Positions 39,954-59,328 of a DNA stretch of 64,000 nucleotides are shown one piece after another (position 1 is the first letter of the stretch; each line of letters begins with the position of its first letter). The translations under genes and the position numbers were made by a program. The notes under the pieces are model-generated. The model made no database searches. It was not told the DNA's origin and saw only the letters and a list, made by a program, of their open reading frames with translations. Source of the DNA: an uncultured delta proteobacterium (GTDB taxonomy: Bacteria > Desulfobacterota > BSN033 > UBA1163); assembly GCA_963708295.1 (NCBI GenBank), contig CAVPSJ010000020.1, positions 32,001 through 96,000 of the forward strand. The letters run 5' to 3'.

Positions 39954-41099
39954 AATTCCTTTGGAGAATGGCTGTGCATATCCCGTCAATTCTGCATACC
40001 CCAACCCGTTGATCGGACTGCCCTGATATTTTCCTTCGACCTTTACACTTCCTTCCCAATAGGTCACCCGTGTGGATTCCTTGGTGATCAACTCCTGATC
40101 CTTGACCGTAGGCGAGAGGGTCAATTCAATTTGACGGGCCGGGACCGTTATCTTCCATTTAGAGGGATAGAGCGCTCCGCTCTTTGAACTTTTCCATCGG
40201 TCAAGGACTTCGATCTGAAATTCTTTCTCAGGGAGATGCTGATGGTTTCCGTCAGGAAATATGATGGTTCCACTCGAATAGGGATCGATTTTTCCGTCTC
40301 TATGCCGAATCTGATAAAACATTAACTCTATGCCATTATCCAACTGAATACTGAACCAATCCCACCCCAGCTGATATTCCCGGAGTTGAGCGGAGCCGAA
40401 TTCATGGTCCATCCAGCTGATTCCTTGAACAGGGACTTCCTTATTCTGTAAGAAGATCTTTCCTTCCGTTTTCAGGCGAGGGATGGAATAGTAATGCGAG
40501 GCAAATCCTTCTCCTTCGCCCTTCTGGCTAACCCCGTTTTGCCCATGGATCACCGGATTTTTGTCCGGTGTCAGCATCAGCTCCAGCCCAAACCTTTTAT
40601 CTCCGGCCTTGAGGGAGTGGTTTTGCATTGAAGGACCTTTCTCTTCGACAGACCAGTCCTCGATCCAGATTCGGAAGGTCTTTTCACCTGTCTTGTAAGG
40701 GGAAGCCCCTGCCTCGCCCAGGCTTCCACGACTGATCTTTTCAAGATATTCAAACTTTCCTCTGGATTCATCCGTGATCGCAAGATGAGCGAAATAGAGG
40801 TCGCGAATGGACCACTTCGATTTTTGTTGTTTTTTCTCCCTGTTCAAGCCCGTTCTAAAAAAGGTGAGTTGATAGCCGAAGGATCTTTTTTCTTGAGTTT
40901 GAGATTGGAGATGCCCGGAATAATACCACCATTCCGTCTTAAATTCAGGATGAGAAAAATGGTCTTGGGGAAAAGAAAAGACCTTTCCGGGAAGCGCCCG
41001 TTTGAAGTTTTGGCCTACGAGCGGAGAAGCAAATAAAGCAAGGCTCAGAAAAATTACAAAGCAGGCAGTCATTGCGAGCCAAAGCCGAAACAATCTCAT
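39951..41099 (-). CDS. AttH/CrtC-like lipocalin-domain secreted protein
   Basis: FPQDHFSHPEFKTEWWYYSG, FGYQLTFFR, SWMDHEF, GWDWF, YWEG, GYAELTGY. Confidence 0.85.
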   Translation of the reverse strand: MRLFRLWLAMTACFVIFLSLALFASPLVGQNFKRALPGKVFSFPQDHFSHPEFKTEWWYYSGHLQSQTQEKRSFGYQLTFFRTGLNREKKQQKSKWSIRDLYFAHLAITDESRGKFEYLEKISRGSLGEAGASPYKTGEKTFRIWIEDWSVEEKGPSMQNHSLKAGDKRFGLELMLTPDKNPVIHGQNGVSQKGEGEGFASHYYSIPRLKTEGKIFLQNKEVPVQGISWMDHEFGSAQLREYQLGWDWFSIQLDNGIELMFYQIRHRDGKIDPYSSGTIIFPDGNHQHLPEKEFQIEVLDRWKSSKSGALYPSKWKITVPARQIELTLSPTVKDQELITKESTRVTYWEGSVKVEGKYQGSPINGLGYAELTGYAQPFSKGI

Positions 41100-50557: not shown

Positions 50558-51658
50558 CTATCCCGGGAATTTTCTTTCCTTTAGAATCTCCCGGTGCAAT
50601 TCGTTAAAGTTCTTCGGGGGAATAGCATTCGACTTCCTGACCAGCTTCACCGCTGAGGCAGGGCAGGGCACGGCGCAGACTCCACAACCGATGCACCAGT
50701 CTTTATCAATCACGGGGAAATCCCCTTCCATCCTGATGACCTGAACAGGACAGATCTCCACGCAAGCTCCGCAACCCGTACATCGCTCCTTATCTGTTTC
50801 TCTGAGGAAGTAGGTCGCCATCAGGACATCCCTTGGAATTTTCTTTCTTCTGATCGTCCCGACGGACCAGCAACAGCAGCCGCAGCAGTTGCAGGTGTGT
50901 TTGACTCCTTCCCTGGCATTGTCCACGAGATGAACCAGGCCTGCTTGTTCAGATTTTCTAATGACCTCAAGGGCCTCTTTTTTCGTAATCTCTCTCCCGA
51001 TGTCCTTCTCGATCAGATATTCTGCAAGGTCATCGTATTTGATACAGTTCTCAAGAGAATGATCGCATCTCTTCTTTCCAATCAGATGGGCGGTTGCCCG
51101 GCACGGACAATGGACCAGCGCAATCATGTTAACCTTCTCGATGACCCGCTCCATCATCTCAAAAGGGAATACAGCGTGACTGTCCGGCTCAAAAGACGGA
51201 GTGGCAGGGATATAACGAAAAGGCTTTGTTTTGGCGTTCCCGTAGGCCTCTTTCAATTGCTCTTTCCCGGAATATTTGGCAACCAGCTCCGCCATCTTTT
51301 TTGCATTCGGAGTATTGACCCCTCTCCAGAAAAAGGTCTGGGGGAAGCCGTACCCAAACTGTTGGAGCGCATACCCCATACTCCCGTCCTTCATCTTTTT
51401 AGAGAACAGAAGTCCTCGTTGGGCTAAGTTTGATAGGATCGATTTCAGCTCTTCCATTGAAATGTTTTGAGGAGGGGCAATTTTTGCAACCGGGACAGGG
51501 TCAAGAGGGATAACTTTAGTGGGTATGGCTAAGGCCACTTCCGCTTCCAAAGGGGTGAAGTTTACTTTGAGGATCTCCAGAAGCTCTTCTTTCTCCGGAT
51601 ACCCCATGCCCAAAGAAGACAGGTGCCTCGCCAATCGCTTGTAAATTTCATCGGCCAT
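50558..51658 (-). CDS. 4Fe-4S dicluster ferredoxin-domain protein
   Basis: CPCR, GLVH, CNCCGCCC, CTGCGACVEICP, CIGCGVCAVPCP. Confidence 0.88.
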   Translation of the reverse strand: MADEIYKRLARHLSSLGMGYPEKEELLEILKVNFTPLEAEVALAIPTKVIPLDPVPVAKIAPPQNISMEELKSILSNLAQRGLLFSKKMKDGSMGYALQQFGYGFPQTFFWRGVNTPNAKKMAELVAKYSGKEQLKEAYGNAKTKPFRYIPATPSFEPDSHAVFPFEMMERVIEKVNMIALVHCPCRATAHLIGKKRCDHSLENCIKYDDLAEYLIEKDIGREITKKEALEVIRKSEQAGLVHLVDNAREGVKHTCNCCGCCCWSVGTIRRKKIPRDVLMATYFLRETDKERCTGCGACVEICPVQVIRMEGDFPVIDKDWCIGCGVCAVPCPASAVKLVRKSNAIPPKNFNELHREILKERKFPG

Positions 51659-51884: not shown

Positions 51885-54442
51885 TCATTCCATCCTCAAC
51901 GATTCCACCATGTTCATTCTGGCAGCCCGCCGGGACGGGATGAGCCCGGCACCGATCGACGTGACCATAACCACCAGCCAGGACTCGATCAAACTCCAGA
52001 TGGGAACGGAGAACTGGATGGTCCATCCAAAGGACTGTTTGTTAATGACATAAACGAGAAGGACGGAAAGGAGAAACCCGCAGACGAGGCCGAAAATATG
52101 GCTGAAAAAGCCAATCATCCCTGCTTCGATCAGCGTGGTTTTCTCGATCTGTCTGCGGAAGGCACCCACTGCCCGGATGATCCCGATATCCCGCTGCCTT
52201 TCGATGATCAGCGCATTCAAGGAGTTAATAATTCCAAGAATGGCCACGATCATAGCGATAAATTCCAGCGCATAGGTAATCGCAAAGGTCTGGTCAAAGA
52301 TCTTCAGAACCTCTTTCCGCAACTCCCGGTGGGAAACCACAAAGAGACGATAAGGTTTGGAGTATCTTTCCCGGATCATCTCCTTGAAGGCCTCCTGGGA
52401 GACCCCTTCTTGGAGATAGATTCCGGCGCTGTGAAGCGTCTCATCGTTCCACAGCGATTGAAAGATTTTTTTCTCCAGCAGGATCATTCCCCAATCTGAA
52501 GAATAATCGTAGAAGACTCCGGAGATCAGAAACTCTTTTTCCCCTTGGGGGGTGTTGACCTTTATCCGGTCTCCGGCCTTCACGTGATGCCTGAGTGAGA
52601 AACTCTCGGTGACGAGAATGGCCCGGCCGGCGGCAAACTGCCGGAGAATGGCCCGAGGATTCCCTTGTGTGAAGCGGATCACCTTCAAGTTGAGAAATAC
52701 CTCTCCATCGACAGATGCGATCAGGGCGGGCTGGCCTTGATATTCGACTTCCAATGCCCTGAAGGGATCAACAGCCTTCACTCCGGGAAGAGAAGGCAAG
52801 GCCCTGGAGACCTCCAGGGGGAGGAGGGCGGAGTACCCTGTGATGGAGTAGGAGCCCGGGAAGATGAACACGTCCCCGTTGATCGATTGTTCCACCCAGA
52901 GATCCACCGTCTTCCGGAAGCTCAGGATCATGATCGAGATGCTGATCAGCATCGAGAGGGCGGTCATCAATGCGGCAATCGTGATCACGGTCCTGGCCAT
53001 CGAATCATGGATATATCGACTCGCCAGTTTTCCTTCGGGACCAAAGAGGAAACGGAGAGCCGGAGCCATCAGACGGTTCAGGAGATGGGTGGCAGAAGGG
53101 ATCAGGAAGGAGACCCCTACGACAATGAGAAGTGCAGCCATGAAGCCCAAGATGGGCCGGTGAGCGATGGGTTTCTGGAGGGCAAAAATGAGCGAAAGGA
53201 TGAGAAGACCCATCCCGATGAGATTGAAACGCCCGGTACGAGTTTTTACTTTCTTTTCGAGGGTTCCCAGCGCCAGGGCCTCCGTGGGGGCGATCCCTGA
53301 GGCTTCCCTGGCGGGGCCGATCGAGGAGAGAACCGAAGCAAGCACTCCCATTCCAAAGCCTGCCATTAACACGGACGGAGAGATCAAGAGATGTTCTGCC
53401 TTGACCAGAATATAGAGAGCCGTAATCGTTCTTGAGACGAGATAAAGCATGGCCTTTGCCAACCCTATCCCGATTCCTATCCCGAACAGACTTCCCAAAC
53501 ATCCGATCCATGCCGCTTCACTGATGAAAAGACCGAGGACCTGGGGTCGGGTCAGACCGATGCTTCGAAGAATTCCAACCTCCCGCCTCCTCTGAATGAT
53601 CGAGATGGAGATGGCGTTATAGATCAAGAACATTCCCACAATGAGAGAGATAAAGCTGAGGGCAGTCAGGTTGAGGTGAAAAGCCGAAACCATTTTTTCG
53701 ATTTGACCGCTCCGGGTATCGGACCGGCGAATCTCGACTCCGGGAGGGATTACTTTTTTCAGGTCTCTCTCGATCGTGTCCGCCGCCATGGATTTGTCTA
53801 CCATCAGGTCAATCCGGTCGATGAGGCCGACCTTCTCCAGGGCTTCCTGAGCGGAGGCGATGTCGATGAGGCCGAAATTTCCTTCCAGCGATTTGGCAGG
53901 CCCCTCCATCTTTAGAAGATGGGTGATGGTAAAGGGTACCTTTTTTGATCCTACGATGAGATGGATTGGCCCTCCTTTTTCAACCCGTGCCGGCTGGCCA
54001 GTTTTTCGGTGATGGCAATGGAATTTGGCGTTTTCAAAAAGAGGAGGTCCGACGCATCCGTTTCGTAGAATTGATATTCCCTGAAGGGCCGATCACTAAA
54101 GACGTCAACGCCGAGGAGATAGAGGGGTTCTCCGATGGGCTCATCGATTTTGGAGACATATTGAATGACGGGTGTGGCGGCCTTGACTCCGCGAACGCTT
54201 TTTACCTTGAGGTAGACGTCTTCAGAAAAGCCCCTCCCAAAGGAGGTAACCTGGAAATTGGCTTTCCCCGAGACATGATCGACGGAGGCGTTGAAGGATT
54301 CGATGGCCGTGTAAATGGCCGTCTGGACACTGACGAAAACAGCCACTCCCAGGGCGATTCCTATTATGGACAGGAGGGTTCTGCCTTTATGGTGACGGAG
54401 ATGGCGGAGAGTGATATTCTTGAGGAGGTGAAAGAGGACCAT
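51885..54442 (-). CDS. FtsX/MacB-like ABC permease (AttF/G-type); frameshift near 53965
   Basis: RTLLSIIGIALGVAV; two FtsX repeats RRREVGILRSIG and RQRDIGIIRAVG. Confidence 0.85.
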
Positions 54443-54448
54443 ATAGAA

Positions 54449-54620
54449 AAATCCGAAATACGAATATCTAAATCCGAAACAAATCCAAATTCTCAAATTT
54501 CCAATGTTCTAAACTTTTTTCAGCGATCTGTTTTAAGTTTTGAATCTTGGTCATTCGGTATTGTTTCTAATTGATCGCTAATGCGATGCTTCGCCCGGAT
54601 TTCGTGCTTCGATATTCATA
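54449..54620. repeat. Heptamer-periodic imperfect inverted repeat (AAATCCG/AAATACG)
   Basis: AAATCCGAAATACGAATATCTAAATCCGAAACAAAT and complementary arm ATTTCGTGCTTCGATATT. Confidence 0.65.
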
Positions 54621-55468: not shown

Positions 55469-56380
55469 TCAATCTTCAAAGCAGGCTTTCGGCACGCTGG
55501 AGAGGTCTAATCCATCGTAGAATCTTTCAATTTCGATTGAAAGTTCCTTGATCTTTCTTAATAAGGGTTCGGGAATGAGAAGAGTTGCTTGAGCCACCTC
55601 CTCTTCATAGAGGTTGTGTCTGAGATATTCGGGTTCGCTCTTGCCGAACCATATCTCTGCCTCCCACGATTTTTGATTGAAAAATTCGGTCTTGAAATGC
55701 TTCTCACTCAGCCCGAACGGGCTCCCGGGGGAGATAAAGGTCAGTACTCCGTGATTGGACGCGGGCCTGGCAGCGAGATTGGCATACATGCACATAAATT
55801 CTCCTCCGAAGGCAACCGAGCGAACTGACAGACTCCGTCCGTTGATTTTGCTTTCGACATATTCTTGAAGAAGGTAAGGGTTCGATGCAAGATTCAATTT
55901 CCAAACAGAGGAAGGCTCGTTGACGATCTGCAAATCCCTTCCTCCTCTTCCTACCCGCCGCTTCAAAATCACCTTCTGCTTTCTTCCGATGAAACGGCCA
56001 ACCCCGGCCGTATCTTCCGGGTTAAAGATCATCGTCTCCGGCATGGGGGCAATGGCCTTAAGCAACTGGTATTGATTCCACTTGTCCTCCAACCTCAATC
56101 CAGGATGAAAGGTGTTCGGGAAGGGTCCCATACCGTCCATCCAGATCTTGAAAGGTTTTAGGCTGCTGATAAAGGGAAGGGAATGAAGGTAGTCTTTGAA
56201 GGTCTTTCCATAAACTTTTTGAGAAGTCGATTCGATTCGCTGGAAGATATCCGAGGGTTTCCCAAAATGGACCGCATGGGTAAGATGATATTCATGAGCC
56301 CCGCCGGGAAGGCCGACATTCACCTCCGCCAGGTAGAGCATCAACTCAGGAGTGATCAGAAAGTCAATTCCGAGATACAT
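55469..56380 (-). CDS. Circularly permuted ATP-grasp protein
   Basis: N-terminal GIDFL..YLAEVN..PGG precedes EDKW..PMPET, VILKRRVGRGG and YLLQEYV. Confidence 0.7.
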   Translation of the reverse strand: MYLGIDFLITPELMLYLAEVNVGLPGGAHEYHLTHAVHFGKPSDIFQRIESTSQKVYGKTFKDYLHSLPFISSLKPFKIWMDGMGPFPNTFHPGLRLEDKWNQYQLLKAIAPMPETMIFNPEDTAGVGRFIGRKQKVILKRRVGRGGRDLQIVNEPSSVWKLNLASNPYLLQEYVESKINGRSLSVRSVAFGGEFMCMYANLAARPASNHGVLTFISPGSPFGLSEKHFKTEFFNQKSWEAEIWFGKSEPEYLRHNLYEEEVAQATLLIPEPLLRKIKELSIEIERFYDGLDLSSVPKACFED

Positions 56381-56434
56381 GCCACACAAAAAAAACAGGT
56401 CATCGATTCACCCGACCTGTTCTCTTGAGTTAAG

Positions 56435-56527
56435 GTCATTGCGAGGAGTAAAACGACGAAGCAATCTCATCGCTTAGCGGGTGAGATTGCCGCGCTCTCC
56501 CGCTCAGGCGGGATCGCTCGCAATGAC
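56435..56527. repeat. RPE/REP-like cruciform repeat GTCATTGCGAG...CTCGCAATGAC
   Basis: 11-bp terminal IR, internal GCAATCTCA/TGAGATTGC arm, nested TCCCGC..GCGGGA. Confidence 0.8.
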
Positions 56528-56568
56528 AACCTGGACCCATTGGATGCATTTTTCCCATAGGGCAAGAG

Positions 56569-56597
56569 GGGCCCCCTCCCTTCCTGGGAAGGGGCCC
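56569..56597 (-). terminator. GC-rich stem-loop just 3' of the peptide gene (terminator or mRNA stabiliser)
   Basis: Minus strand GGGCCCCTTCCC-AGGAA-GGGAGGGGGCCC, 12-bp stem with one G-U pair; weak U-tract. Confidence 0.55.
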
Positions 56598-56607
56598 GAT
56601 GAATGAC

Positions 56608-56670
56608 TTAACAAGATGCTTTGCATTTGCAAAGGCCGGAGAACTTCTTGGCCACCTTCTTGATGGTCAT
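56608..56670 (-). CDS. Putative RiPP precursor peptide MTIKKVAKKFSGLCKCKASC (20 aa)
   Basis: Manual translation; SD GGAGGTG 6 nt upstream; ATG 1 nt after the rSAM stop; followed by a hairpin. Confidence 0.75.
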   Translation of the reverse strand: MTIKKVAKKFSGLCKCKASC

Positions 56671-56671
56671 A

Positions 56672-57838
56672 TCATTCACCTCCCTTCAGAACCCCTCTCG
56701 CAAAACATTGAAAGAGATCGGGTTGCAAAAGATTGCTTTCAACTTTGGCCCTATAGCGGCACCCCCCTCTGCACTCTTCAATCACGTCGCATTTGCAGAC
56801 AAGGTCTTTTAATGAGATGCGAAGGATGCGGACCCAACAAGTTCGAAGTCCTTCTTCGATAGATCCCGTCGGTTCTTGACTAAAGAGACCACACTTACAG
56901 ACGGCTCCGTTCGCCATTATAGCACAAAGGTGAGCGCCGCAAGTAGAATTTCTTGTTGAACCGTGAAATCCGCCTCCAAACCCGTAAGCAAGAAAATGGC
57001 CGGCTTCAGAAGGAGACACGTGAAGGTCCTGGTTTTCTTTCAGTCTTCCCTCAACACAGGGAACATCCACATTCCATTCCTCAATTCGTTTTGATTGAAG
57101 AAGGGAGGCCAGCCGGTCGAACTCCGACAGATTTCGCCGGTGAATCATCGTCGCCACGGAAACCCGTATGTTGGCTTCTTGCAGATGGTTAACGGCGGTG
57201 ATGGCTTTTTCGAAGGTTCCTCTTCCTCGCAGCGAATCGTGACCTTCTTTCATACCATCGAGACTGATCTGGACCTCATGAACACGGAGCTTTTTGGCGA
57301 CTTCTCTGGAGATCAATGTGCCGTTGGAGAGGAGAACCGATCGAAATGGATAGTCTCGAAGAATCTCGTTTAATTGCCAAAAATGAGGGTGAAGCAAAGG
57401 CTCCCCTCCGGACAGAAGGAGTCTCAGCCCTTGGATCTCTTCAAATTGGTCCAATACTTTTTCGATCTGTTTCCTTGAGAGATCCTGATGAGAACCTTCC
57501 CCGATGTAACAGTGGCGGCACCGGAGGTTACACCGGTTGGTGATCTGGAGCTCAAGATACCGTAAGGAAGGAGCCGGGGAAGGATTCGAAACGATCTTTC
57601 TTTGGGAAGGGGCTTCCGAGAAGGCGATTAAGTTTTCGTCGAGGCAAAATCGGATGAATTCTTCATCTTCCTGCCGTACAGGAGGACTTTCACCCCGGCA
57701 GATGCGGAGAAGAAATTGATACCCATCCTCGTTCAGTTCATAAAGTTCGTCTTTTTCGATATCGTAGAGGTAGCGTTCTTCGAGATTTTTAAGAACAGCG
57801 TGAGGGGAAAGGGTGATGACCCTATTCTCGAAGGGCAT
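56672..57838 (-). CDS. Radical SAM/SPASM enzyme with N-terminal RRE/PqqD-like extension
   Basis: CNLRCRHC, SGGEPLLH, QISLDG; SPASM CGAH..AVCKC..CKC..ECRGGCRYRA..C; N-terminal YLYD..ELYELN. Confidence 0.9.
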   Translation of the reverse strand: MPFENRVITLSPHAVLKNLEERYLYDIEKDELYELNEDGYQFLLRICRGESPPVRQEDEEFIRFCLDENLIAFSEAPSQRKIVSNPSPAPSLRYLELQITNRCNLRCRHCYIGEGSHQDLSRKQIEKVLDQFEEIQGLRLLLSGGEPLLHPHFWQLNEILRDYPFRSVLLSNGTLISREVAKKLRVHEVQISLDGMKEGHDSLRGRGTFEKAITAVNHLQEANIRVSVATMIHRRNLSEFDRLASLLQSKRIEEWNVDVPCVEGRLKENQDLHVSPSEAGHFLAYGFGGGFHGSTRNSTCGAHLCAIMANGAVCKCGLFSQEPTGSIEEGLRTCWVRILRISLKDLVCKCDVIEECRGGCRYRAKVESNLLQPDLFQCFARGVLKGGE

Positions 57839-57986
57839 CGGAGATCTCCTCGGAGGTGAGGATCTTCTTTTCTAAAAGCCGCTTGAGAATTTTGTAGGCG
57901 CCGCATTCCAGGTCCTTGTCGGACTCTTTATAAAAATCGCAATGCTTACAGATCAATTCGGTCAAAGACTCTTTATCTAATTTCAC
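57822..57986 (-). CDS. Small Cys-motif protein (CKHC...ECG), overlapping the rSAM start
   Basis: GTG start with AAAGGA RBS; 54 aa; 17-nt overlap with the rSAM gene. Confidence 0.65.
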   Translation of the reverse strand: MKLDKESLTELICKHCDFYKESDKDLECGAYKILKRLLEKKILTSEEISDALRE

Positions 57987-58087
57987 GAGATTTCCTTTCG
58001 CCAAAATAGTAATCTAAAATGTGCGAGGATTCAACTTGTTTCAGTTTTCCTTCCCTTTGCTCCGAGGTTTGACCTTCAAAAAAAGAC

Positions 58088-58182: not shown

Positions 58183-58461
58183 ATGGTCAAAAAACCTGAA
58201 AAAGGAGCCTGCGCCGAACCTGCCTGCGGGAAAGTGAGTTGTTGCAGGGTGGATGCACTGATCGGCGTCGACGAACGTGGGCAGATGGTCCTTCCCAAAG
58301 AAGTCAGGGATAAAGCCGGTATCCGCACAGGAGACAAGTTGGCGCTTGTGAGCTGGGAGAAGGACGGAAAAGTGTGCTGCTTGACTCTGATTAAGGCCGA
58401 TGAATTCGAAGGGATGGTGAAGGGGCTCCTGGGTCCGATGATGAAGGAAGTGATGGGATAG
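58183..58461 (+). CDS. AbrB-like Cys-rich protein resembling HgcAB-associated HgcC
   Basis: CCRVDALIGVDERGQMVLPKEVR..I..GDKL..VCC. Confidence 0.75.
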   Translation: MVKKPEKGACAEPACGKVSCCRVDALIGVDERGQMVLPKEVRDKAGIRTGDKLALVSWEKDGKVCCLTLIKADEFEGMVKGLLGPMMKEVMG

Positions 58462-58491
58462 TGCTGCTAAATAATGCGGAGGTGGCCGAAC

Positions 58492-59328
58492 ATGGAAAAG
58501 GAAGAAATAAGAAAAGTCGTAAGAGAGGGCTACGGCAAAATCGCGAAACAAGACAGCTCGTGCTGTGCTCCTGAAAAATCCTGTTGCGGGAGCGCAACGT
58601 CAGCGCAGGATATTGGCAGAAAGATAGGATACAGCGAAGCAGAATTGAAAACCGTTCCCGAGGGAGCAAATTTGGGCCTTGGATGCGGCAACCCTATCGC
58701 TCTCGCATTATTAAAAGAAGGGGAAGTGGTTCTCGATCTGGGGTCAGGCGCGGGTTTTGACTGTTTTCTCGCTGCCAACCAGGTGGGTAAGACGGGGAGA
58801 GTCATCGGGGTGGACATGACGGCGGAGATGCTCGACCGGGCAAGAGAGAATGCCCGGAAAGGCAATTATGCCAATGTGGAATTCAGACTGGGAGAGATCG
58901 AGAACTTACCCGTGGCAGACCATCAGGTGGACGTCATTATCTCCAATTGCGTGATCAATCTTTCCCCGAACAAGAAAAGAGTTTTCCGGGAAGCCTTCCG
59001 TGTGCTCAGGCCGGGTGGAAAGTTAATGGTCTCTGACATTGTGCTTCTCAAAGAGCTACCCGCCGAGGTCAAAGATTCCGTGGCCGCCTGCATCGGCTGC
59101 GTGGCGGGAGCCGTGACCAAGAAGGAGTACCTGGAGGCGGTTCAGGCTGCAGGATTTGAGGAGACCAAGATTGTGGGCGAAGCGGCTTTTTCCACGGAGC
59201 TCCTGGTCAGTGATCCGGTAGCCAGAGAGATTGCTAAGAATCTGAACCTGTCCCCGGAAAGAGCCGAGGATCTGGCGAGCTCAGTCGTGAGTATCAAGGT
59301 CTCGGCAACCAAGCCGGCCGTGAGTTAG
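58492..59328 (+). CDS. arsM: Arsenite S-adenosylmethyltransferase
   Basis: NLGLGCGNP, LDLGSGAGFD, IISNCVINL, GCVAGA, N-terminal CC pairs. Confidence 0.88.
   Translation: MEKEEIRKVVREGYGKIAKQDSSCCAPEKSCCGSATSAQDIGRKIGYSEAELKTVPEGANLGLGCGNPIALALLKEGEVVLDLGSGAGFDCFLAANQVGKTGRVIGVDMTAEMLDRARENARKGNYANVEFRLGEIENLPVADHQVDVIISNCVINLSPNKKRVFREAFRVLRPGGKLMVSDIVLLKELPAEVKDSVAACIGCVAGAVTKKEYLEAVQAAGFEETKIVGEAAFSTELLVSDPVAREIAKNLNLSPERAEDLASSVVSIKVSATKPAVS

Follow-up and report, generated by a model that had tools for sequence, protein, structure and literature searches.

We analyzed a 64,000-nucleotide (nt) stretch of DNA from an uncultured delta proteobacterium (contig CAVPSJ010000020.1, positions 32,001 to 96,000; here termed the window), in which an open reading frame (ORF) of only 20 codons lies directly 3' of the gene for a radical S-adenosylmethionine (SAM) enzyme. 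This 20-codon ORF is a real, conserved gene that is coupled to the enzyme gene. The third core component of the system, overlooked as such in the preliminary description of this DNA, is a small cysteine (Cys) protein encoded at the same locus. We consider it likely that the three genes form a peptide-maturation module, in which the 20-residue peptide is the substrate, the maturase combines a recognition element (RRE) for ribosomally synthesized and posttranslationally modified peptides (RiPPs) with a radical SAM core and a SPASM-like domain, and the Cys protein is an accessory; thioether links would be the likeliest modification, and the product would be physiological.

A conserved 20-codon gene follows the radical SAM gene

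The three genes are located on the minus strand of the window. The gene of the small Cys protein (57822..57986) encodes 54 amino acids (aa) from a likely GTG start at 57986, the position at which the interval of the preliminary description ended, and 60 aa in the mechanical ORF that starts with TTG at 58004. It overlaps by 17 nt with the start of the gene for the 388-aa radical SAM peptide-maturase-like enzyme (56672..57838). The TGA stop codon of the latter (56674..56672) is followed by a single base (56671) and then by the ATG (56670) of the precursor-like gene (56608..56670), which comprises 20 codons and ends with TAA (56610..56608). Its product, MTIKKVAKKFSGLCKCKASC, consists of a basic N-terminal part of 13 residues and a C terminus of the form CKCKxSC. 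The Shine-Dalgarno sequence of the ORF, GAAGGGAGGTG (56677..56687), is within the last codons of the enzyme gene, and a GC-rich 12-bp hairpin (56569..56597; arms 56597..56586 and 56580..56569) is found 10 nt past the stop codon. An ORF 1 nt past the stop codon of the enzyme gene, preceded by a Shine-Dalgarno sequence and followed by a 12-bp hairpin, is what had been described initially, and the coordinates confirm it.

Related loci were collected starting from either the enzyme or the peptide. The enzyme-seeded set comprised 37 genome loci, derived from metagenome-assembled genomes (MAGs) labeled Syntrophaceae/Thermodesulfobacteriota (67 to 87% identity) and from Nitrospirota/Thermodesulfovibrionales MAGs (41 to 50% identity). 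The peptide-seeded scan of metagenome contigs employed a degenerate pattern that fixed only Ile3, Lys5, the core, and the stop codon, and resulted in at least 120 loci; the counts given below for this set refer to the 120 loci listed. To compare the DNA, 42 ORF-bearing loci were pooled, corresponding to 33 distinct DNA versions.

These data provide several lines of evidence for a protein-coding gene. (i) The length of the ORF was exactly 20 codons in all 33 versions, and Ile3, Lys5, Cys14, Lys15, Cys16, Lys17, Ser19, and Cys20 were invariant, with codons that differed between versions (TGC/TGT, AAA/AAG, and TCT/TCC/TCG) and a stop that varied between TAA, TAG, and TGA. Positions 2, 4, and 6 to 13 were variable yet remained basic. 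(ii) At least 103 distinct peptides were present among the metagenome matches listed, in which position 18 was S, A, G, R, N, H, T, or V. In 120 of the 122 peptide copies listed, the distance from the start codon to the stop was exactly 20 codons, and the pattern used had imposed no start. (iii) The back-translated core pattern had a single match in the window and none in 100 shuffles; it also had a single match in the entire 4.9-Mb genome, as compared to zero for the control. (iv) In most related loci, the ORF is preceded by a GAAAGG(A/G/T)GGTG-like box. This also applies to stand-alone copies of the peptide gene, which retain both this ribosome-binding box and a terminator; one subclade carries GAAAGGACGGTG or GAAAGGCGGTG instead.

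A strong stem-loop past the stop codon was observed in most loci among the matches listed, and in an alignment of 18 related sequences from Syntrophaceae-type loci, 9 of the 12 predicted pairs of the hairpin showed compensatory changes. A terminator scan based on a simple consensus did not call the hairpin because it lacks a T-run, and we read it as a transcript-end or stabilizing element. The conserved hairpin behind the ORF, together with the fact that gene callers never predicted the ORF, would also agree with a conserved RNA element at the 3' end or terminator region of the enzyme transcript, in which the reading frame is incidental. We regard this as barely credible, since substitutions were mostly at synonymous codon positions, the length of 20 codons was fixed, and start, stop, and Shine-Dalgarno sequence were kept in stand-alone copies as well as in loci where the gene is located upstream of the enzyme. 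Furthermore, a search of Rfam with the segment 55300..58600 produced no match at E values up to 1.

The exact peptide of the window, as well as a Nitrospirota version of it, was absent from ~15 billion predicted proteins, indicating that gene callers missed the 20-codon gene and bearing out the initial view of a hidden ORF; in the public records fetched, the precursor was overlooked because it is merely 20 codons long. Queries with the 20-aa and 23-aa forms, which have little statistical power due to their shortness, matched no precursor family in NCBIfam (E up to 1) or Pfam (E up to 5). As to transcription, a 219-nt contig from an RNA library is identical to positions 56524..56742 and spans the ORF, and RNA-library contigs from relatives cover most of the operon. 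This provides a weak hint, because such libraries can contain DNA.

Some genomes carry two or three 20-codon genes, either in a tandem-like arrangement or as stand-alone extra copies, which differ in their N-terminal halves and share the same core. Among the metagenome matches listed, L149 and L174 contained two copies each.

Peptide and enzyme genes co-occur across genomes

In related genomes, the ORF directly followed the radical SAM gene in all 15 intact orthologs (66 to 80% identity). Of the 37 enzyme-seeded genome loci, which belong to two phyla, 25 had an ORF ending in CKCK(A/S)SC just 3' of the enzyme gene. A conserved small ORF beside homologs of the enzyme, which the preliminary description had named as a check, was thus observed. 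The 12 loci without an adjacent ORF were L032, L034, L037, L046, L049, L050, L051, L052, L054, L055, L056, and L057; among these, the enzyme of L032 is frameshifted, L054 contains Ns, L055 and L056 are at contig ends, and L057 (29% identity) is not an ortholog.

Starting from the peptide, the enzyme was present in 91 of the 120 metagenome loci listed: directly upstream on the same strand in 73 (with gaps of 4 to 134 nt and, in one case, of 2112 nt), in the order peptide, Cys protein, enzyme in 17, and on the opposite strand in 1. In another 11 loci, no call on the presence of the enzyme was made. At the genome level, 17 of the 41 genomes around that of the window contained an ortholog of the enzyme (E at most 1e-100; two of the 17 were split), and these were the same 17 genomes that contained the peptide; the remaining 24 had neither, and a reversed control pattern had no match in the 41 genomes. 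Among 61 Nitrospirota genomes, 46 contained both genes, 3 the peptide only, 1 the enzyme only, and 11 neither. The enzyme of the single enzyme-only genome is a fragment at a contig end. A short precursor-like gene is hence genetically coupled to a maturase-like gene, as is expected for a precursor-maturase pair.

This coupling does not depend on adjacency. In 10 of the 61 Nitrospirota genomes, peptide and enzyme genes were far apart or on different contigs. Extra stand-alone copies of the peptide gene were detected in G001 (two copies), G013, and G020, each of which also has an enzyme-linked copy elsewhere in the genome, and this explains at least some of the loci in which the peptide appeared as an orphan. 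Within the carrier lineages, the prevalence was high (49 of 61 and 16 of 24 genomes). A quick tree of 77 enzymes, built from radical SAM matches of at least 330 aa that were free of stops or X, contained three clades, namely, a peptide-first clade (8 rows), a Syntrophaceae-type clade (30 rows), and a Nitrospirota-type clade (39 rows). In three genomes (G083, G084, and G099), the module genes are on contigs of ~1.3 Mb or more, and cultured carriers of the module may exist.

Two full copies of the module, with enzymes that are 76 to 78% identical, were noted in a single genome on two occasions (L025 and L033, which belong to one MAG, and G008). Of such paired copies, one is accompanied by ABC transporter genes and the other is not.

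Domain architecture and fold of the radical SAM enzyme

The enzyme belongs to the radical SAM superfamily, as evidenced by the match to PF04055 (E 2e-23; 83.8 bits versus a cut-off of 29.5). The radical SAM core and Fer4_12 were the only Pfam domains detected, and the cluster motif CxxxCxxC (Cys103, Cys107, and Cys110; 57509..57532) was invariant in 29 aligned orthologs. All NCBIfam maturase models among the matches listed (25 of 81) were below their cut-offs, the best scoring 105 bits versus a cut-off of 650, and the top rows, which included WgkB, NirJ, ScmE, GeoRSP, ACGX, and MftC, had ~90 to 105 bits versus cut-offs of 265 to 650. Within these 25 rows, the enzyme could be assigned to none of the named families WgkB, ScmE, GeoRSP, ACGX, MftC, CcpM, CefB, StsB, DynA, and anSME. 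A Nitrospirota ortholog was likewise below the NCBIfam cut-offs. The earlier statement that the system corresponds to no named family therefore holds for the enzyme, within the NCBIfam matches listed, and also for the peptide and the Cys protein, none of which is claimed by a curated family.

An AlphaFold model based on the alignment of 29 orthologs had a pLDDT score (predicted local distance difference test) of 89.9 and a predicted template modeling (pTM) score of 0.90. The top ranks of a Foldseek search with this model were SkfB, SuiB, BlsE, and anSME. In VIA-align superpositions, model residues 12 to 371 aligned with SkfB (Z 26.3, root mean square deviation [rmsd] of 5.2, 321 aligned residues) and residues 8 to 383 with residues 2 to 439 of the SuiB chain (Z 26.0, rmsd of 4.2, 351 aligned), followed by anSME (Z 23.8, model residues 87 to 387), CteB (Z 23.2), and PqqE (Z 20.2).

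RREs are PqqD-like, winged-helix domains to which the leader peptide binds. The putative RRE-like domain covers residues 1 to ~85 (57584..57838) and is composed of four strands and two helices. When the N-terminal 90 residues were folded alone, the pLDDT was 77, and the seven best Foldseek PDB rows of this isolated domain were all RREs (TbiB1, lasso-peptide B1, and the PbtF RRE). Lower rows included other RRE-bearing enzymes (the LynD/TruD heterocyclases, ThcOx, TigE, and CteB), and a PDB sequence profile search with the same domain returned nothing relevant. The SPASM-like auxiliary-cluster domain (56699..56953) has the pattern C300-x10-G311-x4-C316 ... C348-x-C350-x5-C356-x3-C360 ... C378, in which the seven Cys residues and G311 were invariant in the 29 orthologs. 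It corresponds to the SPASM pattern, in which seven Cys serve two auxiliary clusters, except that the central block opens with CxC, one residue shorter than the canonical CxxC. The resemblance to the folds of anSME, SuiB, and CteB extends through the C terminus, and many orthologs carry the Joint Genome Institute (JGI) name "radical SAM protein with 4Fe4S-binding SPASM domain."

Several results speak against this domain assignment. The RRE rows were weak, with E values of 0.02 to 0.13 and none at 0.001 or better (probability 0.93 to 1.00, TM score 0.49 to 0.63), and Pfam PqqD, the sequence model for the RRE, had no match to the enzyme. TIGR04085 scored 22 bits on 56732..56941, below its cut-off of 27, and there was no Pfam SPASM row (PF13186) at E values up to 5. 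Of the N-terminal RRE of ~85 aa and the Cys-rich SPASM domain proposed initially, what stands is the resemblance of predicted folds and the seven Cys residues, and what does not is recognition by these sequence models. The enzyme is thus modeled as an RRE, radical SAM, and SPASM-like protein at the level of fold and not by curated sequence models.

A small Cys protein is the third component

No Pfam or NCBIfam family matched the small Cys protein, and the relatives found are all named "hypothetical protein"; the form recorded by gene callers is that of 54 aa. Cys19, Cys22, Phe24, Cys34, and Gly35 (numbering of the 60-aa ORF) are invariant in the family. A form with two repeats (~110 aa) occurs in the Nitrospirota and peptide-first clades, and the single repeat of the window protein aligns to the second of these.

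The Cys protein was present in all 25 enzyme-seeded loci that carry the peptide. Seven radical SAM loci without the peptide (L034, L037, L046, L049, L050, L051, and L054) also lacked the Cys protein. It adjoined the enzyme in 63 loci, 35 of them with both genes on the same strand and 28 with divergent genes; it was absent from 15 loci with sufficient sequence, and no call was made for 19. Five genomes were searched for it, and in the four with a dispersed layout (G084, G099, G087, and G085), it was found at a third place.

Furthermore, Cys protein and enzyme are fused in frame in seven metagenome loci (L091, L096, L097, L098, L108, L138, and L175; ~504 to 529 aa), which is good evidence for a joint function of both proteins. 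In these fusions, the two-repeat Cys protein is on the N terminus of the enzyme, and the peptide gene is upstream, not downstream, in that clade. The 504-aa fusion L091:7101-8615 has the order Cys domain, RRE-like, radical SAM, and SPASM, with the canonical CxxC spacing in the central SPASM block. A complex prediction for the enzyme and the Cys protein scored 0.00 versus a mark of 0.32, which speaks neither for nor against binding.

Proposed mechanism and role

We propose the following sequence of events. The 20-residue peptide would be translated from its very strong ribosome-binding site, and its basic N-terminal 13 residues would dock as a strand on the RRE-like domain, so that the invariant heptapeptide Cys-Lys-Cys-Lys-x-Ser-Cys could enter the active site. 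There, a 5'-deoxyadenosyl radical may take a hydrogen from Lys, Ser, or the carbon of position 18, and a Cys sulfur may then close a thioether ring of the sactionine or ranthionine type, perhaps more than once, with a loss of 2 Da each. SPASM clusters in sacti- and ranthisynthases hold the thiolate and take up an electron (see also PMC13692751), and the SPASM-like clusters would hold the thiolate and accept the electron here. The small Cys protein would be an accessory subunit or domain of the enzyme. The invariance of Lys15, Lys17, and Ser19 suggests that these residues take part in the chemistry; SuiB illustrates that the same fold can abstract hydrogen from Lys. The end product would be a conserved intracellular peptide with a redox, metal, or cofactor-like role. 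The core is invariant across phyla, the module is highly prevalent with few copies per genome, and no protease, export, or immunity genes are conserved with it; the product is hence probably a physiological peptide or cofactor and not a variable, secreted antibiotic.

Other observations count against this reading of the module. (i) The evidence that the peptide is the substrate consists of co-occurrence and the type of enzyme. Ten of the 120 peptide-seeded loci listed lacked the enzyme despite at least 1300 nt of upstream and 2000 nt of downstream sequence, and a further 8 lacked an upstream enzyme and had short downstream sequence, so that 10 to 18 loci are without a nearby radical SAM gene. 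The 3 peptide-only Nitrospirota genomes had no strong match to the enzyme. (ii) The quick tree requires merely two changes to account for the loss of the adjacent peptide, and the counts overstate independence because related genomes are kin. (iii) The 219-nt RNA-library contig may come from contaminating DNA. (iv) A strongly basic leader of 13 residues and a core of 7 are unusually short for an RRE-dependent substrate, and Lys, Ser, and Ala are not usual thioether acceptors.

The three Cys residues could also have a purpose of their own. The unmodified 20-mer would then be a ligand for a metal, an Fe-S fragment, or a metalloid and act as a donor, chaperone, or redox partner instead of a substrate, an explanation that we hold to be quite unlikely. 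The alternating Cys-Lys arrangement with three Cys resembles the motifs of metallothioneins, whose Cys-x-Cys clusters bind metal ions, and some stand-alone copies adjoin ORFs that, judged by eye from the N termini, are catalase-like, rubrerythrin-like, and nitroreductase-like. In the Syntrophaceae-type clade, moreover, the system is adjoined either by NifU/NifS or by an HgcC-like protein and ArsM. Against it, the enzyme has an RRE-type peptide-recognition domain in the predicted fold and peptide maturases as its nearest folds, and the Cys residues are no more invariant than Lys15, Lys17, and Ser19, whose conservation simple metal binding would not need. The link to arsM is, in addition, confined to a few loci, as detailed below.

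Genes and elements adjoining the module

On the plus strand, divergent from the module, the window contains genes for an HgcC-like AbrB-family protein and an arsenite methyltransferase, followed by NifU and NifS. The first two (58183-59328) consist of the HgcC-like protein with a Cys-rich N terminus (NF040962, E 8e-37) and, directly after it, the methyltransferase (NF008823, E 3e-109); hgcAB genes did not appear in the portion of the window that was read. This pair adjoined the system in only 4 of the 37 genome loci (L021, L022, L024, and L039). Nine other Syntrophaceae-type loci have NifU at that place, eight of them also with NifS, so that the pair looks inserted between the module and NifU/NifS, whereas L029, L030, and L031 have neither arrangement and the Nitrospirota loci have other neighbors. 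We therefore rejected a metalloid role, at which the divergent arsM genes had been taken to hint, as a conserved feature of the system.

The gene 3' of the hairpin encodes a 306-aa ATP-grasp protein (55469..56389, minus strand; PF02655, E 1.1e-5), for which a PDB sequence search returned no match. Between this gene and the peptide gene are the hairpin and a 93-nt repeat element (56435..56527). The ATP-grasp gene was present in 25 of 105 peptide-bearing loci, all of the Syntrophaceae-type clade. It is thus a clade-specific neighbor, possibly a tailoring enzyme, and not a core part.

The 93-nt element is bounded by perfect 11-nt inverted ends (GTCATTGCGAG / CTCGCAATGAC), and an end similar to its own, with 1 mismatch, is found at 41068. 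In one metagenome, the depth in the bins overlapping the element was 1326 and 694, as compared to ~10 to 100 in the majority of the remaining bins, and its ends coincide with breaks in many contigs. These observations suggest a multicopy miniature repeat.

Further 3' of the ATP-grasp gene follow genes for an ABC ATPase, a frameshifted MacB/FtsX-type permease, and an Fe-S protein. We considered the ABC exporter as a part of the system and rejected it, since it was found in close relatives only and is absent from L029, L030, and L033; across clades, no protease or exporter was conserved in the 105 peptide-bearing loci. The permease (51885-54496, minus strand) is split into 54496..53951 and 53909..51885, and we interpret this as a frameshift because the downstream frame remains open upstream beyond the stop of the first ORF. 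A relative, L104, appears to have a single longer permease ORF, and the split gene is either a pseudogene or an assembly error. The 366-aa Fe-S protein (50558-51658, minus strand) combines a CNCCGCCC motif with a two-cluster ferredoxin domain at the C terminus. The HgcB ferredoxin is among its highest-ranking NCBIfam rows (E 1.3e-11, under the cut-off), and the protein is kept 3' of the module in the close relatives L022, L025, and L033.

Recurrent neighbors in Nitrospirota were rubrerythrin-like proteins, subunits of 2-oxoacid:ferredoxin oxidoreductases, Fe/Mn-superoxide dismutase (SOD)-like proteins, DsrC-like proteins, and small ferredoxins; of the 105 loci, 16 had a rubrerythrin-like gene, 14 had NifU, and 11 had an SOD-like gene. 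The redox flavor of these neighbors is a lead, which may reflect shared synteny. It bears on a further explanation, according to which the peptide is the scaffold of a cofactor or small molecule: its C terminus would be cross-linked or decarboxylated and a redox- or metal-active molecule excised by unlinked peptidases, as in the case of pyrroloquinoline quinone (PQQ) and mycofactocin. A short precursor with a C terminus that is invariant across phyla, an RRE, radical SAM, and SPASM-like maturase with a small accessory protein, the high prevalence in the carrier lineages, the dispersal of the genes in some genomes, as in housekeeping pathways, and the frequent redox/Fe-S neighbors would all fit. 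We nevertheless consider it unlikely, given that the conserved neighbors of the module include no peptidase, oxidase, or other tailoring gene, that the MftC model scored 90 bits versus a cut-off of 265, and that the neighbor counts stem from related loci and may mirror shared synteny alone.

Relation to known systems

By both sequence and fold, the best match is SkfB/SkfA, the thioether synthase of the sporulation killing factor (PDB 6efn; profile E 2.9e-22). SkfB combines an RRE at its N terminus with a radical SAM core and joins the sulfur of a Cys to a carbon within a short peptide. The two enzymes share ~23 to 24% identity, their precursors are unrelated, and the system described here has a Cys protein as an additional partner and lacks conserved genes for export or immunity. 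In addition, its enzyme has a full seven-Cys SPASM-like motif, whereas SkfB has a smaller "twitch" auxiliary domain. SuiB/SuiA, which generates the Lys-Trp cross-link of streptide (PDB 5v1q/5v1s/5v1t), has the full RRE, radical SAM, and SPASM architecture; it abstracts hydrogen from a Lys within its short peptide, which bears on the two Lys residues that are invariant here. The identity to SuiB is 15 to 17%; the peptide contains no Trp, and there is no quorum-sensing context.

RRE, radical SAM, and SPASM enzymes that act on Cys-rich C-terminal regions include CteB/SCIFF and other ranthipeptide and sactipeptide synthases (PDB 5wgg/5why) and CrpC/CrpA of Methanococcus voltae. In sactipeptides, the sulfur of a Cys is joined to the alpha carbon of an acceptor residue, and in ranthipeptides, to its beta or gamma carbon. 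CrpC is reported to install ranthionine links on a neighboring Cys-rich protein (PMC13692751). As compared to the CteB and CrpC systems, the precursor described here is far shorter (20 aa with 3 Cys) and is invariant instead of variable or repetitive, and the acceptor-type residues differ. Like PqqE/PqqD/PqqA and MftC/MftB/MftA, the system pairs a precursor that is short and conserved with a radical SAM/SPASM-like enzyme and a small partner protein, and its distribution is housekeeping-like. It differs in that the RRE-like domain is part of the enzyme itself, the partner belongs to a different family, of Cys proteins, peptidases or further enzymes are not linked, and the core residues are not the same. 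The best match for the radical SAM and SPASM part is the anaerobic sulfatase maturase anSME (PDB 4k36-4k39), which oxidizes a Cys or Ser of its peptide substrate. anSME is devoid of an RRE, TIGR03942 scored 61 bits on the present enzyme versus a cut-off of 349, and neither a sulfatase gene nor a sulfatase-type motif in the peptide was seen at the system.

Systems in which a Cys-containing precursor is paired with a radical SAM/SPASM enzyme that depends on an RRE are known already. New are (i) the precursor family, with its 20 aa, its invariant 7-aa core, and its lack of annotation in a collection of ~15 billion proteins, and (ii) the obligatory Cys protein partner or domain, the variant SPASM spacing, and the housekeeping-like distribution over at least two phyla and a further clade. 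Our search, which included the core motifs as text and did not extend to supplementary genome-mining tables, found no paper that describes the peptide or the system.

If the peptide is the substrate of the enzyme, the module would represent an undescribed family of radical SAM-modified peptides that is widespread in anaerobes of sediments and wetlands. The Cys protein, a fusion partner of the enzyme in some lineages, would be a new accessory domain for this enzyme class. A more far-reaching idea, which we hold to be doubtful, is that the module makes a new ribosomally derived thiol/thioether cofactor or redox-metal peptide that belongs to the core physiology of the strictly anaerobic Thermodesulfovibrionales, the Syntrophaceae-type clade, and a third lineage; it would then stand beside PQQ and mycofactocin, with the smallest precursor known (20 aa with a 7-aa core) and a new Cys protein partner. 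What sets the system apart from antibiotic-type RiPPs is the invariant core, the high prevalence in the carrier lineages, and the fact that all three genes are kept also in genomes where they lie dispersed, and these features make a physiological role testable.

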